A stretch of DNA of 64,000 nucleotides, from the NCBI RefSeq assembly GCF_030013595.1, contig NZ_CP122768.1. One strand, given 5' to 3'. Position numbers and translations under genes: made by a program. This document shows, piece by piece, positions 1-9,864 of this stretch (positions are counted from its first letter, which is position 1; each line of letters begins with the position of its first letter). The notes under the pieces were generated by a model that saw only the letters and a program-made list of their open reading frames with translations, searched no databases and was not told the DNA's origin. The stretch comes from Escherichia coli (GTDB lineage Bacteria > Pseudomonadota > Gammaproteobacteria > Enterobacterales > Enterobacteriaceae).

Positions 1-103
1 ACTGTAATGCTCTGTTTGGTTCATTGCACCAGTTTAATGCTGCACTTTCGTTACCTTCAAAAAGATCAATAGCCTTTTGTATAACATCATTTTTTGTCAG
101 CAT
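1..103 (-). CDS. Partial ORF cut by window edge; N-terminal segment resembling DUF2384 (Xre/MbcA/ParS antitoxin C-terminal domain)
   Basis: Minus-strand translation from ATG at 101-103 reads MLTKNDVIQKAIDLFEGNESAALNWCNEPNRALQ, matching my recollection of the DUF2384 core (A..lFGg.e.A..WL..PnpaL). It overlaps the stop of the upstream Xre ORF in another frame and may be its frameshifted continuation. Confidence 0.35.
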   Translation of the reverse strand, partial: MLTKNDVIQKAIDLFEGNESAALNWCNEPNRALQ

Positions 104-419
104 GTTTTACACCTGAAGACGTTTTGAGTGCTTCGATAAGGCTACTTCGCTCTTCCTCTGTCATCCGAGATATGAGTAATGCAAGTTCTGCTGTTGTCTG
201 ATCATCACAAAAAAGGTAGTTCAACGGCACGTTTAACTCTGCTGCCATCCGTCGAAGCGTATCAATATCGGGGACATGGCGTCCTTTCTCATAATGATTC
301 ATACGACTGCTAGCCGATGCAGGATCAAAGCCAACAAGGAGACCCAGAGAGCGCTGTGATAAACCAGCCCTGCATCTCGCTTCCTTAAGTCGTTCTGGTA
401 TCGGATTTTTTTCAGACAC
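87..419 (-). CDS. Xre/Cro-C1 family helix-turn-helix transcriptional regulator (110 aa)
   Basis: ORF track; HTH_3-like segment LKEARCRAGLSQRSLGLLVGFDPASASSRMNHYEKGRHVPDIDTLRRMAAELNVPLNYLF. Does not match K-12 HipB from memory. The last codons run through an A6 tract (90-96) immediately before the stop. Confidence 0.8.
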   Translation of the reverse strand: MSEKNPIPERLKEARCRAGLSQRSLGLLVGFDPASASSRMNHYEKGRHVPDIDTLRRMAAELNVPLNYLFCDDQTTAELALLISRMTEEERSSLIEALKTSSGVKHADKK

Positions 420-503
420 TGATTCATCTTCATTGGCCTCGAATGCTTAGATTGTCTAAGTATCTGCCATTGTTGTATACTTAGCAATCCTAAGTTAATA
501 GCC

Positions 504-1076
504 TTGTTTTGTCATATGAATAGCCGAGTAACCAACCCTGAGTCGTACATATTTTCTGCAATCATCTTAATTGGCAAAGATAACTTCACCAGTAACGAAG
601 TAGCAAAAATTCTTATCGAGCGATTTTCACTTCCGAAAAATTATTTAAAGGCAAAAGCTTTTGCTTATAACCAAATTCAATCCCTGGTTAGAAAAGGATT
701 ATTAAACAAAGTAAGAAAAACAGGCGTGTATCAATATTTATACTCAGTCACAGCAGAATTCAATGTCGCAATAGAGTGCGTGAAATTAATTGAGGCAACC
801 CCAAAGTCTTCCTGTCAACTTGTTTCAAGTGCTACCAACCATGAACACAGAAATGTAAATATCCAAATAAAGTCTCTTATTGAAAAATACAGCAGTGAAT
901 TGGCGAAAGTATCAGGAGCAAAGGAGATTTATGAGGAATTGATAGTTGCTGTGCCGAGCAGGGAAAATGAATTCAGGAAGCTTTCTCTTGAACAAGAGAA
1001 AAAACACATCAAGATAAATGAAAAAATAAATACATTAATTGGAATTATTAATCAATCTCTTGCAGTAAGGCAATGA
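504..1076 (+). CDS. Hypothetical protein (190 aa), possible winged-helix DNA-binding N-terminus; divergent from the Xre gene
   Basis: ORF track; AT-rich codon usage; no recognisable catalytic motif. Alternative start at MNSRV (position 516). Confidence 0.5.
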   Translation: MFCHMNSRVTNPESYIFSAIILIGKDNFTSNEVAKILIERFSLPKNYLKAKAFAYNQIQSLVRKGLLNKVRKTGVYQYLYSVTAEFNVAIECVKLIEATPKSSCQLVSSATNHEHRNVNIQIKSLIEKYSSELAKVSGAKEIYEELIVAVPSRENEFRKLSLEQEKKHIKINEKINTLIGIINQSLAVRQ

Positions 1077-1110
1077 ATTTTAGCAAGTATTTGAAGCTAA
1101 ATGGAGTCAT

Positions 1111-1145
1111 GAAAAAGAGAGGGCAAAGCCGAACTCCGCCCTCTC
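1111..1145 (-). terminator. Candidate rho-independent terminator for minus-strand transcripts
   Basis: 8-bp stem GAGAGGGC/GCCCTCTC (1117-1124 / 1138-1145) with a 13-nt loop; on the minus strand it is followed by a U5 run (A-run 1112-1116 on plus). Loop is long, so weak. Confidence 0.3.
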
Positions 1146-1891
1146 CCGTCAAGCACTGATATATCTCATTAAAATGAGATTAACAGCGCGCACTCCTATA
1201 TGCTAGTCGTATATAAATATAATGTCAGCCAGTCCCGGATGCAACTCTTTAATGAAGTTCAGTACTCTCTTTTTTTAGTTATCGAAATGATAGTTGGTAC
1301 AAGGGAACACACGAAGAGGAAAATTGCGATGACTTTGACGCAGAGCATGTTGAGTCTATTATTGCGACCCTCGAAGCTCTGGATGCGTTAGATTTACGCC
1401 ACGGAAGATGGACTGTAAGTATCCCTCCAATAGTGCGACTCACTTACCCAGATTGTAAGTTCAAACGGTCGAAGGCACTAGATTCTGATAAGAATTTGAG
1501 GCGCATGAGTACAGGCATTCGATTGTCAGCTTCTGGGTAGTTGTGGGAATTCTGCTCAAAGTGCCGCTGGCCAAAACATATTGGGCGCTGGTCTGTGGCG
1601 GCAAAATGGTGTCACGTAAAAGATACAGATGTTCCAGTCTATTTTTGCCCAATAACGTGCCCCGGGTTCAGTTTTTTTGCTCGGGACTAAAACGCTTATC
1701 CAGATCAGCCGCCAGCTGTTCAATACTCTTCGTTGAGCCTTTATAAATATACCAATCAAACTGTTAAAAACTCGTTCAAATTCGACCAAATATTATTACT
1801 GGCTGATATTAGTTCGGTTAGGCAAAGCGCAACAAACAACTAAGAAGTGCGCCTCAAAAAATTAATTGTAAGGCGCCCCCCTAAAACACAT

Positions 1892-4219
1892 TTATTCTGT
1901 TATATTTCTTGGCAACATAGAAAAAGATGCTTGAGACAATCCTGCGCGCTTGAATTTATACCGTATATATGTTGACACTTCCATCTCATGGTTTGACAAC
2001 AAAATCTGACGATCTGAAAGCTCTACCCGTAACAAATCACTCAATGAAGCAATGTTAATCTCATCCATTGACTGTACTGGATCATCAATCAGTATAAATG
2101 GATTAAGCGCATATACCCTATTCAATGTTAGGAAAAATGCCAAACCTAATGATGCGATTTGCCCACTACTCATAGACAGGATTGCATCATGATCAGACTT
2201 CAGCGCAGTATTGAATTTGAGTATATCTCCTTTACCGCTCACTATAAACAAACCTAACCCACGCTGATAATTCTGTATGAGTCTTCCACTATATATATGG
2301 AATAACAGCTCTATATCACCAATAGTCTTTTTCGCATACTGTTTCGCAGTGTCGTCCAATTGCCGCCTAAGATTAACAATTTTTGCTTTTATTTTTTTGC
2401 CAGCTTCAATCCTAGAACTGAGCTTATCAAGCTCCGCTACTTTGGACTTGTACTCTTCGCTTTTGAATTTAGAATGAGCGGCTCTGAGATAGGATTCTTT
2501 ATTTTCAAAATCTGAAACACTAAGTGAGGTTATATCTGATGCGTTCAAGAAAGCCATCTCTAAGCTAGATGACCAGTCTAAAGGGAGCACATCCTTTTCT
2601 GGTTTTTTAGCTGTAGCAATAATCCCTTTTGCTTCATTAAACCGTAACAGCAGAGCTGCATCATCAGCCGTAAAACTAAGATCTTTTGATACGCCATAAT
2701 TTACCAACTGCAAAGCCACTTCACTTATGATTGAGAACTTAGATTCTGCTGCTGTGAGAGCCTTAAAAAGCACACTATCGAAATCTTTTGCAACTAGGTC
2801 ACGCTGCTGTGTGAATGCTGTTATCTGTAAATTTAGTAAGTCCTGTATTGACCTTACTGTCTCCTCCAACTTCTGGGCAGAAGCATCTATTTCAGATCGA
2901 ATTCTTTCCGCATTATTTACAGCGGCTTCCTCTAACGCAGCGTAAGTCGCCCATGATAACCCACAGAATGGACAACCGGAAATTTCCAAATCTTCACATT
3001 CTTGGTGTCGCCGCAGCAACTCTGCATGAGCATTTAGTAAATTTACAAGCTTTGCGTTCTTAGCTGCACTATCAGATTTAATTAGATCCCGTGCCTCAAT
3101 GAGACTATTTACACCAACCAAATCAGCAGCGTTCTTAAGACCGTTTAGGTCTACTTCATTTATCTCTGAAGCTGGCTTTCTGAATATCAAAAGATCATGA
3201 TCCAGCCCAACTAGCGTTGACTCCTTTACTTTCAGACCTTCATATCCAGCTACTTCAGAACCCAACTGAAGAGCCAACTTTATATCGACCTCTCTTTTTA
3301 AAAACGCATCAATATTACTATTAGCCTTTCTCGTCAGAACTTCATCAAAGTTCTGATATATTCTAAATATATTCCGTAATTCACGTATCAGAGTTTCAAT
3401 ATCTGTATCATTTACAGCCGATAGAGGCTGTTCAACATCCCAACCAGGTGACGGCGTCGCGGTACTTAACCGCTTGAAGTCAACGGAATTCTCGGCATCT
3501 TGAAACTGACCACTAAGCTGTTTAATTTTTTCATTCAACTCAGCCTGGAGGTCAGTATGCACTTTCCCCGTATAAGATTCCGTAATAATACTTTCTAACT
3601 CGGAGCAATATGATATCTGTCTCGTCAATTTATCGGTATTAATAAGATGCTCAATGCCTTTTTTTCTTTCAGTGGCATCCGTCGAGTACAGGTATCTATT
3701 CTGCCCTTGCTCAAGATAGTTCAATAAAGAGAAATTTTTTAAGAAGTTCTCTCCTAGAATACTCTCTAGTGCTTTAGAATCAAGACTCTCTCCAAACTTA
3801 TCGGAGTCTATACTGCTTATTTCGTAAAGCTTAAAAATAGAGAAGTTATCAGGTGCATTATTATCCGGGTTCGATAAATCCGCTATGGTAGCAACACGAG
3901 CTAGGAAAATTGACTCTCCTGAATCTTGATTTATGAGCTCAGCTCTAATAGCGATGTCGCCCTCTTTATTTCTATTCCAGTATATGTTTTCTTCAAATTG
4001 TTTTTTGCGCGAACGTTTTGCAACTGTTGCATCATTTGTATTGATAATTCTTTGTATAACGCCAGTAAACAAAAGCTCCAACGCATCAAATATGCTAGTT
4101 TTTCCAAAACCATTGGGGCCATCCAAGGTAATCATGGAGGCAGATCGAAAATCAATAGATGTATTTTCAAATGGCTTGAAATTTTCAATCTTGAGGCTGG
4201 ATATTTTCCATTTCTTCAT
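1892..4219 (-). CDS. SMC/Rad50-like ABC ATPase with coiled-coil and CxxC zinc-hook; candidate Lamassu LmuB-like (ABC-3C ATPase) component
   Basis: 775 aa. Walker A GPNGFGKTS (res 34-42), ABC signature MSSGQ, Walker B ILIDDP, H-loop LSNHE near the C-terminus; long central region with CPFC (res 416-419, nt 2963-2974) at about the midpoint. Start overlaps upstream gene stop by 35 nt. Confidence 0.85.
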   Translation of the reverse strand: MKKWKISSLKIENFKPFENTSIDFRSASMITLDGPNGFGKTSIFDALELLFTGVIQRIINTNDATVAKRSRKKQFEENIYWNRNKEGDIAIRAELINQDSGESIFLARVATIADLSNPDNNAPDNFSIFKLYEISSIDSDKFGESLDSKALESILGENFLKNFSLLNYLEQGQNRYLYSTDATERKKGIEHLINTDKLTRQISYCSELESIITESYTGKVHTDLQAELNEKIKQLSGQFQDAENSVDFKRLSTATPSPGWDVEQPLSAVNDTDIETLIRELRNIFRIYQNFDEVLTRKANSNIDAFLKREVDIKLALQLGSEVAGYEGLKVKESTLVGLDHDLLIFRKPASEINEVDLNGLKNAADLVGVNSLIEARDLIKSDSAAKNAKLVNLLNAHAELLRRHQECEDLEISGCPFCGLSWATYAALEEAAVNNAERIRSEIDASAQKLEETVRSIQDLLNLQITAFTQQRDLVAKDFDSVLFKALTAAESKFSIISEVALQLVNYGVSKDLSFTADDAALLLRFNEAKGIIATAKKPEKDVLPLDWSSSLEMAFLNASDITSLSVSDFENKESYLRAAHSKFKSEEYKSKVAELDKLSSRIEAGKKIKAKIVNLRRQLDDTAKQYAKKTIGDIELLFHIYSGRLIQNYQRGLGLFIVSGKGDILKFNTALKSDHDAILSMSSGQIASLGLAFFLTLNRVYALNPFILIDDPVQSMDEINIASLSDLLRVELSDRQILLSNHEMEVSTYIRYKFKRAGLSQASFSMLPRNITE

Positions 4220-4940
4220 GAATCAGAGTCTCGATTAGTTTGTCTGCTTCAATCCCAGATGCAGAAGCATTAAAGATTTTGAGATGAAGACCGGTCAATT
4301 TTTTCTCGGCGAGTGCTTCCTTTACATAAATATCAAGCGGCTTTAGTGAGCTTTCCTTAACAGGAACCTTTACAAATGGAAGCTTTATAAAAATTCTCGC
4401 CGCGACGCTATATAATGTAGGCGATAGTGGTTGATCTCGATATTCTGCAAACATCCTATCATCGACAACAATCGCTGAAACGCTTTCGAAGTTGTGCCCT
4501 TCTAACAACCTAAGCTCTTCCTCGCTGTAATAAAGAAAATATTTTTTAAAATAATATGGATTCTCTTCAATTCCAAACACCTTACTCTCAATTCCATTAA
4601 AATCAACTCGGTGCCTTAATTTATGCAAAATAATCAGATCGGTATTTTTATCGAAAGCAGGATCAGATTTGAATGTTTCAGGAGCATACAGTAACACTAA
4701 TTTATTCAGCACCTGCGGTGATGGTATATTTTCACACTCAACCACAGCGAGGAATCGCTTCCTATCTCCACTATCCTGACTAAAATAAGTCAAAGACTTA
4801 TAATCAACACCTTCAAGACCAGCTAAAGTTTCTCCTGCCGAATACTCTATGGTGACGTCATCTGCTTTAGAATAGTCGCCTGTATTAAACAAAGTAAACT
4901 CATGTTTCAAGGCAGCCTGTAGAACAATATCTTTAATCAT
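4185..4940 (-). CDS. Middle component (251 aa) of the three-gene ATPase operon; candidate LmuC/kleisin-like protein
   Basis: ORF track; overlaps the upstream gene by 8 nt and the downstream gene by 35 nt (translational coupling); AT-rich; no motif recognised by eye. Confidence 0.75.
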   Translation of the reverse strand: MIKDIVLQAALKHEFTLFNTGDYSKADDVTIEYSAGETLAGLEGVDYKSLTYFSQDSGDRKRFLAVVECENIPSPQVLNKLVLLYAPETFKSDPAFDKNTDLIILHKLRHRVDFNGIESKVFGIEENPYYFKKYFLYYSEEELRLLEGHNFESVSAIVVDDRMFAEYRDQPLSPTLYSVAARIFIKLPFVKVPVKESSLKPLDIYVKEALAEKKLTGLHLKIFNASASGIEADKLIETLIHEEMENIQPQD

Positions 4941-6195
4941 TCAACTTCACCCTCGCCTCTTCCTTTGAAATTATTTTTGCATCAAAGGCTTTAGTTATTT
5001 TGTTACGATCCTTACCCATCAATGAAAACTCATCTTCTACAGCATCCCGCGAAGCTCCGGTAGCTGCACAAAATCGCTCAGCGGGTGAAAAAATATTTGC
5101 TCTAGCTGCGATTAGCCATTGATATTCAACTAAGATATCTATCAGCTCTGGATCGCTTTTCAGCTGCTCTATTAGATCTTCAGCAAACCTATGCTCCCGT
5201 CGAGCATTGTCTGCCGAAATTGCTGTTGGCAAATAAAAATCTCCGGCAGAGCACCTATAGTAAGGAGGCTTTTGCTCACTCAGTGGCGCTTTATCTATAT
5301 CGTAGATCACATCCACATAATCATAAACACTGTTCTCACTCACGACCATTGTGGAAGATCCAAAACATAACGACTTCCACAACCATATAAATGGAGTATC
5401 ACCCAACTCTTTAATCTGATCGTAAACATTTGCAACTTTTTGAATAACAGTTCTATCTGCTGTTTTTTCCATTGTATTGGTATACCCATACAATGATTTA
5501 CAAACGGCCATCCTGGCTTGGAACATTTTGTATACAATGTCGTCTTCATGGGTAGCGGTGAGGCTTAATAACTCTACAATCTTCTCACTTTTTAAAGTTT
5601 GAGTAAACGCGGCTTGTGCGGCGCTCATTAACCCATCCTGATTGCACGCGTGTATATATATTACTTGAGCGGCAATATGACTCTGCAAAGCCTCGAACTT
5701 CAAATTCACTAAAAAATCACTGCAAGGTAACTCTTCGGAAACCAGGTACTTCTCAATTTTTGATTTCGTTTTTTCTTCAACATCTTGGAGATAGCAGTAA
5801 GGCAGTCCATCGTAAGTATAAAATTTAACGACATTCCCATTGCTGCCAACAAAATCAGAAGCATCATCAAGGCGCGCAGATGTATGAAAATATCTTTTGG
5901 TAGTCTTATCACACAACATATATGTAGATGCAGCTTTTTCGAGAGCCTCCCTATAGGCAGCTCTTTTATCATCTGCTAGCGCTTTTACCTGATGCGTAGA
6001 AACTGCAACTCCATTTTCAATTATCGAAAAATCATCAATGCTGTCGATTTGCAACTCAAACGACATTTTATTGAGCACACATTCTATGGAATGATAAAGC
6101 GCTAAATGCCCTTGATAAATAAACCCACTCCATGTAGGTGCAGCTGTATGAGGATGGGAGGAAGCCGATTTCGACATGCAATATGTCCTAGGCAA
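4933..6195 (-). CDS. Putative effector (420 aa) of the three-gene operon; candidate LmuA-like protein with possible N-terminal PD-(D/E)xK-type nuclease fold
   Basis: First gene of the minus-strand operon. N-terminal segment GFIYQGHLALYH...IDSIDDFSIIENGVAVSTHQVK contains a D...D...(E/Q)xK-like arrangement; assignment is by eye only. Alternative start at M7 (position 6177). Confidence 0.75.
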   Translation of the reverse strand: MPRTYCMSKSASSHPHTAAPTWSGFIYQGHLALYHSIECVLNKMSFELQIDSIDDFSIIENGVAVSTHQVKALADDKRAAYREALEKAASTYMLCDKTTKRYFHTSARLDDASDFVGSNGNVVKFYTYDGLPYCYLQDVEEKTKSKIEKYLVSEELPCSDFLVNLKFEALQSHIAAQVIYIHACNQDGLMSAAQAAFTQTLKSEKIVELLSLTATHEDDIVYKMFQARMAVCKSLYGYTNTMEKTADRTVIQKVANVYDQIKELGDTPFIWLWKSLCFGSSTMVVSENSVYDYVDVIYDIDKAPLSEQKPPYYRCSAGDFYLPTAISADNARREHRFAEDLIEQLKSDPELIDILVEYQWLIAARANIFSPAERFCAATGASRDAVEDEFSLMGKDRNKITKAFDAKIISKEEARVKLND

Positions 6196-6524
6196 ATTTA
6201 GAGACAGAGTCAGAAGTAACCTTCTAACTCAGTAGAATATGATCTTAATTTCTGTATCCGATGTTTATATTTTTTGTTGAACGCGCCCAGCGGCGTTATG
6301 AAAACTTCCTTGATTGTCATTTTTATGCATTCTCTTGATCGATAGGAATTTAAATCCCAAAAAGATTAAAAAAACACCCAAAAACGGATGTTTATTCGAC
6401 ACTGCCTGCGTGCCATGAGTGCACCGCCATCAATTAAATGGATCTTATCGAGTGATACTGTATATCACTGATGGTTTTTTACTCCATTCCCCTGAAAATG
6501 GACGCAACTTCCCCGATGCGGCTC

Positions 6525-7712
6525 TCAGCCGCACACCCGCTGTTGCGCCAGTGGCTCATGCATCAGGACCAGCTCTGTCAGACGGTAGCCCCGCTTCAGC
6601 CCCGTAAAACGCATCTGACATCCGCACAGGATGCACTTTAGCGGGTCAACCTTCAGTAACCGCTGATACATCCCTCTCCACCTGATTTGCATCGCCGTCT
6701 TTCTCACCGTCTCCGTTATGACGTACACAACATCTTCCAGTAACCGGCGCTTTACCGGACTCAGGAAACCGTAGTACCTCACCATACGGAACCCCTTATC
6801 CGCCACATGCCAGGAGAACCTTTCCATAAACTCATCACCACTCATCACCAGGTATTCTTCCCGTTTTGTCCGGTGACTGTTGTAACGCAGACCAATTTCA
6901 TCCTGACCAGCATAGTGCTCCAGACGGCTCATCGGCACCGGCGGTTTTTTCAGGTAAGAGCCGAAGTACACCGCCACATGTGTGGCGTTATCCATCACCC
7001 GGGATACGTTGACATTCCAGCCCCGCCGGTAATGACTGTCCAGGAAGCGATTCCAGTCCCGTCTGCTGCTTCCTTCAACTGCCAGCGCATCCGGTATCAC
7101 CAGCTCCGGGTATTTTCGTGACAGTAACCACGTTATCCTGTAACGCCACATGCTCATCACCTTACGGGCGTAAAAATGAAGGTTTTTCCAGGTGTGGTCT
7201 GGTGTCACGCCGCCGGCCGTTGTCGACAGGTGAATGTGCGGATGCCACTGCTGGTCACGTCCCCATGTGTGGATGACCGTGAATATCCCCGGCACCACAT
7301 CTGCCTGGCGGCAGATTTCCTGTATCACATCCGCAGCAATGCGGCTCATCTCTGCCAGTAACCACCGGTTGTGGAACACCAGGGACCAGTACTGGCAGGG
7401 AAGTGTGAACACAATATGCTGCCACGGACAGTCGGGAACCAGACTCAGCAGATACTGTATCCACTGTGCGCCAGCCTTCACTCCGCAGTGCGGGCAGGAG
7501 CGACTTTTACACCGGAAGCAGACCTTTTTTGTGTGGCAACAGTCCGGAGATGAACAGCACCACTGTGTGTACCCCATCAGCGTGGTTCCGCACGCCATGA
7601 TTTTTGTCACCGACTCAATGACTACCGGACGCACTGAACCTTCCGGTTGTTTCTCCAGCCAGTTAAGCCAGCGGTTTCCCTGCTGAAAAATGTCGGCAAA
7701 ACGGGGAAGCAT
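6525..7712 (-). CDS. tnpA: IS91-family transposase TnpA
   Basis: N-terminal Cys-rich zinc-binding region (CCSSPDCCH...CFRCKSRSCPHCG), HUH motif HPHIH, conserved Tyr-containing C-terminal region. Likely start at MLPRF (7712), sharing one nucleotide with the orf121 stop; ORF track extends to 7757. Confidence 0.85.
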   Translation of the reverse strand: MLPRFADIFQQGNRWLNWLEKQPEGSVRPVVIESVTKIMACGTTLMGYTQWCCSSPDCCHTKKVCFRCKSRSCPHCGVKAGAQWIQYLLSLVPDCPWQHIVFTLPCQYWSLVFHNRWLLAEMSRIAADVIQEICRQADVVPGIFTVIHTWGRDQQWHPHIHLSTTAGGVTPDHTWKNLHFYARKVMSMWRYRITWLLSRKYPELVIPDALAVEGSSRRDWNRFLDSHYRRGWNVNVSRVMDNATHVAVYFGSYLKKPPVPMSRLEHYAGQDEIGLRYNSHRTKREEYLVMSGDEFMERFSWHVADKGFRMVRYYGFLSPVKRRLLEDVVYVITETVRKTAMQIRWRGMYQRLLKVDPLKCILCGCQMRFTGLKRGYRLTELVLMHEPLAQQRVCG

Positions 7713-8077
7713 CAGAAGGGCGGGGGGACTCCGTCCGGCCAGTGAACCGTGCCACACTCCGGGCAGTACATGCCGCCGGCGCTGATACCGGCAAGAATGG
7801 TCGCAAACTCCCGCTCCGTGCAGCGGGCTATTTCAGGATACCCTTCGTCATCGACACGAACAAACCAGAAGACCAGCTTTTTGTTTCCGGCATCCACAAA
7901 GAAGGGAATATTCAGGTCTGCGCAGCACTCAACGGCATCGTCAAAATTATCAAAGCGCAGAGCTTCTGCGTCTTCTTCGTCAAAGAAGTCATCGTCGTGA
8001 AGCTTCACGACATAGCGGGGAAGTTTGCTTCTTTGAGGGGCAGGTTTTCGTTTACGGGGTTTAGCTGAACGGGACAT
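7712..8077 (-). CDS. IS91 accessory ORF (ORF121-like, 121 aa)
   Basis: 121-aa ORF immediately upstream of and overlapping tnpA, as in IS91. Confidence 0.65.
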   Translation of the reverse strand: MSRSAKPRKRKPAPQRSKLPRYVVKLHDDDFFDEEDAEALRFDNFDDAVECCADLNIPFFVDAGNKKLVFWFVRVDDEGYPEIARCTEREFATILAGISAGGMYCPECGTVHWPDGVPPPF

Positions 8078-8964
8078 ATAACTACCTGAAAGACAATGAT
8101 ATTGTCTGTTTTTATAACGGTAATTTCAGGCCATGACAAGCCGCAGCCGCCAAGCTGCCTACTCGAGCGATATCGCTATGATATCACCGAATGTAACATA
8201 CCTGTAGGGTCAAAAAAAGGGTCAGCCAAACATTCTGGAGTGTTCGGTATCGTTGGTACCATTCATGCAAAATGGACTTAAATCTTAAGAAAGACACTCC
8301 ATTAGCTTAAGCTTCCCTACCTTACCCTACCAATACACCTAGCCAGCCGTGAGAACGCTACCGCCATCAGAGGCATTAGTCCCGATTAAGTATCGATGCA
8401 ACCAAATGTTACCAAAATTCATGAATTGTTCAAGAAGGCAATCAGATAATCCCTAAAGCTTTATGGGCCTGGTTATGCGATTACATTGGGAAATGGTTCA
8501 TGAACAGAAGTAGAGCAAGCTGCCAAGAAATGCTCATAAGAGGCGAATTTCCTGTTAGTTCATGAAGCCACCTGGAAGTGAATTCATCTTTCTATTAAAA
8601 ATATTCATTTAAAGCAAAGAGATATGTCATCTGTGGTTTATGAACTGGATTCTCGCTCAACATAAGTTAAATGTGGTGGGTTTGTTCTTAAGTTCATGTG
8701 TTCCGCTCTTTCAGTAGCTTAACTGATGAATCAGTCAGCAGCTCTTGCCGTGCAAGCTACGCGGCGGTTCGTACCAGATTGGCCACCTCCATCTCCTGGT
8801 TCGCTTTCCCCTCCCCCCGGTAAACCTCACCCAACGTTAATTAATGATGTCAGTATGTGGGCGCTATCCTTGTATGTAAAATCCACTGACGATTATGCCC
8901 ATCTGTGAAAAAAACTCACAATGCCATTCGATGCATCTCCATACTGAACGAGGCGTTATCGTCT

Positions 8965-9864
8965 TTATCGCCCCGTAGTGGATATCAGAAAATCAATCAG
9001 GGCCTTCACTCTTTTCGTTTTACCCGCGTTTTTGGGGTAATAGAGATACACTGGCGGGTAGGTTTTCCAGTAGCTCTCCATCACCGGAATAAAGCGCTCC
9101 CTGTCCGGCTGTAACTGCCAGACAGGCTCAAACAAGCGCCCAATTCCCAGCCCGTTACGGATCCCGTCTGCCATAACGTCAATATCGTTGCTGATTAACT
9201 GCCCCGGCATCTCAACGGTCAACTGCTCACCGCGATCGTTCAGGAGCAGCGGAAGGATGCGGTTGTTGGTGATAAAACGGTAACCAATCAGCTGGTGATG
9301 ACAGAGATCTGCCGGCACTTCAGGCGTTCCATGTCGGGAGAGATACGCTGAGGATGCATATAATCCTTCACGAAACGGTTTCATTAACGGTCGGGCCACC
9401 ACCCCTCCCTCAAGAATATCGCCAAAACGGATCCCCAGATCAAAACGCTCTTTGATGATATTCACGGTACCGTCGTAGACCGAAATTTCTAACTGTATAC
9501 CCGGATATTGCTGACAGAATTCTGCCATCGCAGGCTTAAGAATTAACAGGTAGGCAAAACGCGAGAGCGTAATTCGCACCATCCCAGAGGGCTCCTGATG
9601 CTGGTCGCGAATGCTTTCAAGCGAGTTTTCCAGCGACTCCACCGCCGCAGCGGTCTGTTCCAGCAATAATTGACCGGTTTCCGTCAGCTCTATACGGCGG
9701 GTCGTACGCACAAAAAGCGGATGGCCGATATACTCTTCCAGCAGCTTTAGTGCATTGCTGACGGAGGGAGGCGTAATTTCCAGTTTCCTTGCGGCTGCCG
9801 AAATATTGCCCTCCCGCGCAATGCTCTGGAAGATGCGAATCTGGTTATAAAGAGCGTTATTCAT
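8965..9864 (-). CDS. LysR-family transcriptional regulator
   Basis: 299 aa; N-terminal HTH (ISAAARKLEITPPSVSNALKLLEE) and LysR substrate-binding domain; divergent from the downstream oxidoreductase operon. Confidence 0.9.
   Translation of the reverse strand: MNNALYNQIRIFQSIAREGNISAAARKLEITPPSVSNALKLLEEYIGHPLFVRTTRRIELTETGQLLLEQTAAAVESLENSLESIRDQHQEPSGMVRITLSRFAYLLILKPAMAEFCQQYPGIQLEISVYDGTVNIIKERFDLGIRFGDILEGGVVARPLMKPFREGLYASSAYLSRHGTPEVPADLCHHQLIGYRFITNNRILPLLLNDRGEQLTVEMPGQLISNDIDVMADGIRNGLGIGRLFEPVWQLQPDRERFIPVMESYWKTYPPVYLYYPKNAGKTKRVKALIDFLISTTGR

Follow-up and report, generated by a model that had tools for sequence, protein, structure and literature searches.

One of the questions raised by the 64,000-nucleotide stretch of Escherichia coli DNA analyzed here (the window; NCBI RefSeq assembly GCF_030013595.1, contig NZ_CP122768.1) is what is encoded by the AT-rich open reading frame (ORF) at positions 504 to 1,076. 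An earlier note on this DNA described it as a 190 amino acid (aa) ORF that is divergent from an Xre regulator gene and lies between that gene and a three-gene operon, which the ORF list and coordinates confirm. The note saw no recognizable domain, guessed at an N-terminal winged helix and proposed either a regulator or an extra component of the island. In public records of E. coli, Salmonella and Klebsiella, including those of NDM-1 IncC plasmids, the gene is labelled "hypothetical protein". We consider it probable that the ORF encodes a regulator of the VspR family that makes up one half of a two-regulator cassette, the other half being the Xre protein, which is of the V. cholerae VC0176 type. 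This placement ties a common type of enterobacterial defense and resistance island to the regulatory pair of Vibrio seventh pandemic island 1 (VSP-1), the cholera pandemic island.

A conserved gene of Enterobacterales

On the plus strand the frame is open from TTG 504 to the stop at 1076 (190 aa), and no competing ORF of at least 40 aa lies on the other frames inside this interval. All homologues, as well as the RefSeq annotation of an identical gene (WP_064226057.1), use the ATG at 516, and the homologue N-termini all begin with MN(S/N)R(V/I). Because the homologues and the annotation agree, ATG 516 is likely the true start and gives a product of 186 aa. The GC content of the ORF is 34.4%, as compared with 45.6% in the Xre gene, 38.9% in the three-gene operon and 47.1% in the window, in line with the AT-richness described earlier. 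A spacer of 96 bp separates the ORF from the divergent Xre gene and 815 bp separate it from the operon, which is convergent with it.

A search of 5.8 billion proteins returned 91 homologous protein clusters at E<=1e-3, with 48-97% identity and lengths nearly all between 170 and 190 aa, from Escherichia, Salmonella, Citrobacter, Enterobacter, Klebsiella/Raoultella, Pectobacterium, Lelliottia and Scandinavium. In the family alignment residues 1-85 and 115-180 form conserved blocks with a variable linker between them. The dN/dS ratio of the ORF and its Klebsiella oxytoca orthologue is 0.21, which indicates purifying selection. Since a tblastn search of 50,697 phage records gave zero matches, there is no sign of a phage origin for the ORF. 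The ORF is a real gene that is conserved across Enterobacterales, and conserved homologues in similar islands, whose absence the earlier note would have counted against it, are present in every enterobacterial context examined.

A divergent branch of the VspR family

Searches of the ORF product against Pfam-A, NCBIfam and PADLOC gave only sub-threshold, unrelated matches (IFT57, EarA, AbiEi and YcaO), and a profile search of PDB sequences gave nothing useful (best 3qyf, E 0.57). For these databases the statement that the product has no recognizable domain is correct; it does not extend to the newer Pfam families VspR_N (PF27213) and VspR_C (PF27192), which are found on relatives, while the Pfam-A search gave neither of the two for the ORF. 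A profile built from enterobacterial members only was run with hmmsearch against 1.84 billion representative proteins, of which only 50 reached E<=1e-3. The remote full-length matches come from marine Gammaproteobacteria (Photobacterium, Psychromonas and metagenomes), and among them are proteins with precomputed VspR_N and VspR_C assignments, at E 1.7e-6 to 5e-4 (1.7e-6 for P0118, about 4e-4 for P0131 and P0133). One relative with 80% identity has a precomputed VspR_N match (P0035) and one remote relative a VspR_C match (P0109).

VspR itself (VC0177) was described in V. cholerae as the VSP-1 repressor of the dncV/capV operon, a signaling system against phages that works with cyclic oligonucleotides (CBASS; PMC10653837, PMC9674212). 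The VSP-1 island was located by an exact match to the DncV protein, whose sequence was checked against PDB chains. In BLASTP, the ORF product is 23% identical to VspR over 128 aa (E 0.001). Alignment of the ORF-family profile with the single VspR sequence in hhalign gives E 2.9e-5, and with a 23-member VspR-family alignment the probability rises to 98.8% and E falls to 4.8e-17, over 180 columns that cover both domains. The two proteins also have an equal layout, with two domains in 186 aa and 187 aa, respectively. These profile comparisons place the ORF within the VspR family, as an enterobacterial branch that has diverged; it is this member that is new, while the family was already known.

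The AlphaFold2 model of the product, built on 26 homologues, has a mean pLDDT of 83. Its N-terminal part is modelled as a winged HTH (helix-turn-helix) domain with helices at residues 8-19, 26-37 and 43-59, a β hairpin (63-68/73-78) and a short helix (80-86), as the earlier note had guessed. A disordered linker (98-111) is followed by two long antiparallel helices (109-145 and 147-185). Structure prediction and profile comparison, which that note had proposed, thus led to a winged helix, a helical hairpin and the match to the VspR family. The best full-length Foldseek matches of the model are PadR-type regulators, with E values of about 2e-4 and TM-scores of about 0.3-0.37. The PadR family (Bacillus subtilis PadR, VanR, V. 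cholerae AphA) resembles the ORF product in its size of about 180 aa, its N-terminal winged HTH and its C-terminal helical dimerization domain, whereas the ORF product has a C-terminal domain of its own, a long two-helix hairpin attached via a disordered linker, and shows no Pfam PadR match at E<=1. From the model, the product resembles PadR-type dimeric winged-helix regulators in its working mode and not in family membership. We infer that its winged HTH binds DNA, and dimerization would most likely take place through the C-terminal hairpin, as it does in PadR-type regulators.

The sub-threshold AbiEi match (PADLOC, E 0.0036, 15 bits, residues 29-110) raises the option that the ORF product is an AbiEi-like antitoxin with a winged helix, belonging to a toxin-antitoxin or abortive-infection pair, and a gene with a lone ParS/MbcA-type antitoxin domain does lie nearby. 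The match, however, spans the generic winged helix only, the modelled C-terminal domain is a helical hairpin and not an AbiEi C-domain, and neither an AbiEii nucleotidyltransferase nor any other toxin gene is adjacent in any of the contexts examined. We therefore regard such an antitoxin as very improbable.

The Xre partner and its probable operators

The product of the divergent gene is far more conserved with V. cholerae than its VspR-like partner is: it is 59% identical to VC0176 (E 1e-43). In VSP-1, vspR is divergent from VC0176 in a layout that matches that of the ORF and the Xre gene, so that both loci hold a VC0176-type Xre partner. VC0176, whose promoter region is bound by ToxR and H-NS, is an HTH regulator needed for full colonization of mice (PMC4829181). 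The Xre protein also matches the PADLOC profile "Control_protein" (3.1e-25, with 92 of 101 profile positions covered).

In the control region between the two genes there are two perfect 15-bp palindromes, O1 and O2, of the form CTTAG-N5-CTAAG, which are 34 bp apart from start to start (Table 1). They lie over the predicted -35 and -10/+1 elements of a sigma-70-like ORF promoter found by a consensus scan, in which the candidate Xre promoter is weaker. The pair occurs with equal spacing in loci of E. coli, Klebsiella, Lelliottia and Photobacterium, in metagenomic loci and in V. cholerae VSP-1, where the operators are CTAAG-N5-CTTAG, i.e., with the central base of every half-site swapped.

How far the cassette extends was examined by scanning the Xre alignment against one genome per species (100,044 species), which gave 290 loci with a relative. 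The best 80 of these 290, from 78 species (two species have two loci each), were surveyed; below, loci and proteins are cited by L and P numbers where needed. The surveyed loci belong to Enterobacterales, Vibrionales, Alteromonadales and Oceanospirillales. The operator pair was found in 76 of the best 80 Xre loci, and a divergent ORF that matches the VspR-family profile in 70 of the 78 surveyed loci for which there is sequence upstream. Within the control region, 71 distinct sequences from 76 species have a highly conserved block of about 55 bp, ACTTAGATTGTCTAAGTTTTACTnATTTnTGTATACTTAGCAATCCTAAGTTTT, and its flanks are not conserved.

One question that follows is which of the two proteins reads the palindromes. 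The recognition helix of Xre reads RMNHYEKGRH in 71 of 71 loci with CTTAG/CTAAG sites and RMNQYEKGKH in all five loci with CTAAG/CTTAG sites as well as in V. cholerae; the half-site swap of V. cholerae is thus matched by the changes H42Q and R47K. In two further loci an unrelated 74-aa Xre stands beside a retained VspR gene, and there the palindromes are different and the O1/O2 type is absent. Since the half-sites co-vary with the Xre recognition helix and the loci with the 74-aa Xre differ, Xre and not the VspR-like protein is the probable binder of O1 and O2. The two palindromes, together with this natural specificity swap, make a concrete predicted operator, and VC0176, a colonization factor without a known DNA target, gains a candidate one.

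A small Xre-type HTH protein with two palindromes over the promoter elements of its neighbor fits the description of a controller (C) protein of restriction-modification (R-M) systems, which the Xre protein resembles in sequence and locus organization. In R-M systems, too, two adjacent palindromic operators overlap promoter elements ahead of the controlled gene. That gene encodes the restriction endonuclease, whereas here the predicted controlled neighbor is a second regulator gene; furthermore, the CTTAG-N5-CTAAG operator is specific to the VC0176-type Xre family, unlike those of R-M C proteins. Binding and timing are thus predicted for Xre by analogy.

In 13 of the first 15 related loci, with flanks of 8-25 kb, there are two O1/O2 copies per locus and these are in the intergenic region only. 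Because no further sites of this kind occur beyond chance in the 64-kb window, or elsewhere in those 15 loci, O1 and O2 reveal no wider regulon. No motif common to the regions downstream of vspR-like genes was found across loci that would give a clue to the VspR binding site. As a separate observation, the Pseudoalteromonas loci L037 (9824-9965) and L039 (9825-9966) have two tandem operator pairs, i.e., four palindromes, between the Xre and VspR-like genes, and a third Pseudoalteromonas locus (L089, 9825-9932) has three palindromes under the exact pattern.

A backbone gene of a GInt-type island

Another question is whether the ORF belongs to the island or to its cargo. All of the enterobacterial contexts examined have one or two tyrosine-recombinase genes that are followed by a gene for a 700-790-aa protein, one for a protein of about 145 aa, sometimes a ParS-domain gene, the Xre gene on the opposite strand, the VspR-like gene and then variable DNA. 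Here, two Phage_integrase proteins and then a 787-aa and a 144/147-aa protein are encoded upstream of the Xre/ORF pair, outside the window. The variable DNA of the window, of strain HCP5S3_I2 and of an NDM-1 IncC plasmid is a Lamassu system. In its place p99COLEC-1 has insertion sequence (IS) elements and a DEAD-box helicase gene, a K. oxytoca IncF plasmid has chromate and nickel resistance, a Lelliottia plasmid has other genes, and metagenomic contigs have arsenic resistance.

GInts (genomic islands that have three integrases) consist of ginABCD, cargo and a short AT-rich 3' end, and are bordered by imperfect direct repeats of 10-17 nt (PMC5385486); they have been reported to carry defense systems in E. 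coli hotspots (PMC10121019). The present island resembles the GInts of the Tn6571 family (Bardaji et al., 2017) in its two integrase genes and 787-aa and 144-aa genes in ginABCD order, its variable cargo, its AT-rich 3' end and its 10-nt imperfect repeats, and because of this match we assign it, from its sequence organization, to the GInt type. The 787-aa and 144-aa proteins are placed as ginC and ginD by gene order and size; the former is 34% identical to its Photobacterium counterpart and has no Pfam, NCBIfam or PDB sequence match. By the GInt definition all that follows ginD is cargo, whereas in this enterobacterial subfamily the Xre and VspR-like genes are a conserved block directly after ginD.

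E. coli 19KM1831 has the site without an island; it lies between hipA and a LysR gene and reads TATTATGTTAAATGTGG, and the ends of the island were determined from it. In the occupied genome the left junction reads TATGTTAAA followed by the island, and on the right the island is followed by TAAGTTAAA, so that the comparison with the empty site gives 10-nt imperfect direct repeats. As the island ends at about position 8671, the ORF and Lamassu are in one element. The repeat ACTGGATTCTC was also considered as the island ends and was overruled by the empty-site alignment. Both TGGTTTATG and ACTGGATTCTC are seen just inside the right end, attR (8634-8671), and again in the chromosomal target left of the left end, attL (HCP5S3_I2, locus L001, 7285-7345); ACTGGATTCT/CTCGCTCAAC look similar to the opening codons of ginA. 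These motifs may be recombinase-binding sites or may reflect similarity between target and element end.

Because the Xre/ORF pair follows the GInt recombinase genes while the cargo varies, the ORF is an island backbone regulator and not a part of Lamassu; the reading of the earlier note is thus supported in part, the regulator being the option that stands. That the product would be an accessory or regulatory subunit of Lamassu could be argued from its position, since the ORF adjoins lmuB in the window, in 14 E. coli genomes and on the IncC plasmid with the same island. Yet the operon is convergent and does not approach the ORF closely, no PADLOC Lamassu component model matches the product, and homologues occur without Lamassu: chromate/nickel or helicase cargo accompanies a 78-97%-identical gene, and arsenic-resistance cargo adjoins a remote relative, which matches the family profile at E 9.4e-17. 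In addition, a relic of an integrase 5' end parts the backbone from Lamassu. Taken together, these points make a Lamassu subunit a highly implausible identity for the product.

This relic is a 52-bp copy of the ginA 5' end of another GInt lineage. The backbone common with other islands ends at 1250-1409 (at 1409 in the comparison with p99COLEC-1); the copy starts 29 bp past this last position, ahead of Lamassu, and ends exactly at the annotated integrase starts of the Lelliottia and p99COLEC-1 elements. It looks like a relic of the joining of the Lamassu segment to the backbone, possibly the scar of a tandem GInt insertion or of cargo capture.

VSP-1 and the ORF locus are both integrative islands with anti-phage systems, and the operator pair has the same 34-bp spacing in both. 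They differ in that the CBASS cargo of VSP-1 is downstream of vspR on the same strand, and the Lamassu cargo is convergent with the ORF. In BLASTP, the 703-aa and 143-aa proteins of VSP-1 are not similar to those of 787 aa and 147 aa from enterobacteria, and the regulator cassette is thus common to islands with differing recombination modules. We also observed that the far end of VSP-1 (L015, 13539-20717) holds a 400-aa integrase gene, an IS (in the strain used) and the genes for these 703-aa and 143-aa proteins, which recalls the integrase/large/small cores of GInt or SE elements. Near the Xre/VspR cassette of four other species (L029, L055, L059 and L094) there are genes for homologues of the 703-aa protein.

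A helicase partner in related loci

A gene for a superfamily 2 (SF2) helicase of about 458 aa (ResIII, with weak RadD/PbeA similarity) comes next on the same strand in 46 of 68 loci, where it has a 4-nt overlap with the VspR gene. With phmmer this helicase was found in 50 of the 80 loci. Neither the window nor VSP-1 has it. Such frequent overlap implies that the VspR family may have, or have had, a helicase-linked role. The product could then be a DNA-targeting accessory for mobile-element functions, such as replication, recombination or loading of the SF2 helicase, for which repression is secondary and of which the enterobacterial and VSP-1 forms are remnants that have lost the helicase. Besides the counts just given, the position of the VspR-like gene beside recombinase modules in enterobacteria, Photobacterium and VSP-1 fits such a role. 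However, VspR, the sole studied member, behaves as a repressor of transcription and does so with no helicase (PMC10653837), integration and excision are seen with a minimal synthetic GInt that has ginABCD and a suicide vector as its sole cargo (PMC5385486), and the modelled fold of the ORF product matches transcription factors. We thus consider an accessory factor unlikely, though less so than the antitoxin and the Lamassu subunit.

The module of Xre, VspR and helicase genes is seen in most marine and in some enterobacterial loci (Citrobacter sp. NCU1, Buttiauxella), often followed by type I R-M, CBASS, GmrSD or SIR2 genes. Examples of the helicase genes are those at 10549-11925 in L013 and 10561-11979 in L011.

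How the cassette may work

The mechanism that we favor for the VspR-family regulator and its Xre partner is the following. The cassette sits in the GInt-type island downstream of hipA, with the recombinase genes (outside the window) on one side of it and the Lamassu cargo on the other. Xre would bind O1 and O2 as two dimers, as R-M controllers do, and in the bound state would set the timing and strength of expression of the VspR-like gene and probably of its own gene. The VspR-like product would dimerize by its helical hairpin, bind DNA by its winged helix and repress other island genes, the candidate targets being the Lamassu promoter upstream of 6195, the gin operon and the cassette itself.

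Several points weigh against this proposal. The identity to VspR is low and the pairwise E-value weak, and precomputed Pfam VspR matches are absent from the ORF's own cluster and from most enterobacterial relatives. The Xre/operator co-variation may come from a single clade, so that the loci counted are not independent events. From island to island the cargo differs, which makes a repressor specific to a cargo promoter hard to square with a conserved backbone position, and Lamassu, in particular, is convergent with the ORF and 815 bp away. That the VspR gene overlaps the gene for the ~458-aa SF2 helicase in 46-50 of the 80 Xre loci is a hint that its ancestral role was more than simple repression. 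Finally, the reach of VspR control is debated in V. cholerae itself: a vspR mutation had no effect on CBASS-dependent sensitivity to sulfamethoxazole (PMC10653837), and PepA repressed vspR while the CBASS transcripts were unchanged (PMC9674212).

A wider proposal, which we put forward tentatively and hold to be less likely true than not, is that the Xre/VspR cassette, usually with the helicase, is a widespread island control module of Gammaproteobacteria. In this module Xre would act like a C protein on its operators and time VspR after entry into a new cell, and VspR would silence potentially toxic cargo (CBASS, Lamassu) or the recombination genes of the island. Several gammaproteobacterial islands with the cassette do carry anti-phage defense systems, and no prior description of the cassette as an island control module was found in the literature searched. 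If the cassette indeed controls toxic defense cargo or excision, this would help to explain how such islands are established safely in new hosts, and VSP-1 of pandemic V. cholerae and the GInts of E. coli would share one regulatory logic. The gene on its own is that of an ordinary small transcription factor; the interest lies more in the cassette, i.e., in the operator pair, the link between GInts and VSP-1 and the helicase partner.

Other features of the locus

The coordinates of all features are collected in Table 1. Next to the ORF, on the minus strand, is a terminator-like hairpin that is GC-rich and partly common to the K. oxytoca locus; owing to its 13-nt loop, it was not picked up by a terminator scan. 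Convergent Lamassu transcripts would be stopped by it, which would shield the ORF.

Table 1. Position and predicted nature of the features at the left end of the window
Feature	Position	Strand	Remarks
64-aa gene with a lone MbcA/ParS/Xre C-terminal (toxin-binding) domain, 5' part	1..103	-	Pfam Xre_MbcA_ParS_C, E 1.3e-7; RefSeq annotation of an identical locus
VC0176-type Xre/HTH regulator, 110 aa	87..419	-	Pfam HTH_3/HTH_19; PADLOC Control_protein
Divergent control region of Xre gene and ORF	420..515		Conserved block of ~55 bp inside
Putative operator O1, CTTAGATTGTCTAAG	446..460		Contains the predicted ORF -35 (TTGTCT, 452-457)
Putative operator O2, CTTAGCAATCCTAAG	480..494		Abuts the predicted ORF -10 (TATACT, 476-481); contains the candidate Xre -10 (TAGGAT, 492-487)
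VspR-family regulator gene (by profile comparison), 186 aa	516..1076	+	Modelled winged HTH, residues 8-86; disordered linker, 98-111; helical hairpin, 109-185
Terminator-like hairpin, then UUUUU	1111..1147	-	35 bp past the ORF stop; -24.8 kcal/mol, z = -3.2 (RNA fold)
52-bp copy of the ginA 5' end of another GInt lineage	1438..1489	+	96% to Lelliottia element (L005, 7503-7554); 88% to p99COLEC-1 (L002, 2830-2881)
Lamassu (ABC-3C) operon	1892..6195	-	Pfam and PADLOC
LmuB, 775 aa	1892-4219	-	SMC-like ATPase; PADLOC LmuB, 7e-69
LmuC, 251 aa	4185-4940	-	MComp1
LmuA, 420 aa	4933-6195	-	Cap4_nuclease and CTD1
IS91-family insertion, 1.8 kb	6345..8161		410-aa transposase, 6525-7757 (-); 121-aa ORF, 7712-8077
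Right island end (attR), imperfect direct repeat ATAAGTTAAA	8662..8671		Left partner TATGTTAAA downstream of hipA, outside the window

From its start at 103, the 64-aa gene with the ParS domain extends past the beginning of the window, and it has a 17-nt overlap with the Xre stop. No RES/ParT-type toxin gene lies near it, and it is missing from some E. coli loci that are similar in other respects. It may represent either a split antitoxin or an orphan domain.

The IS91-family element sits between lmuA and the right island end and is missing from the otherwise 99.9%-identical island of HCP5S3_I2. A search of positions 1-9000 against Rfam gave nothing but a sub-threshold 2dG-II riboswitch match at 7246-7319 on the minus strand, within the transposase gene of the IS91 element (21 bits, with a gathering threshold of 60, E 0.33), which is almost certainly due to chance.

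Regarding the integrases, an in-frame ATG lies 18 codons upstream of the annotated ginA start (MYSL(T/N)Q...WILMD) and is kept between divergent GInts (Lelliottia, L005, ~7499-7553; L001, ~7488-7543). Its conservation implies that the annotated integrase starts may give proteins that are too short.

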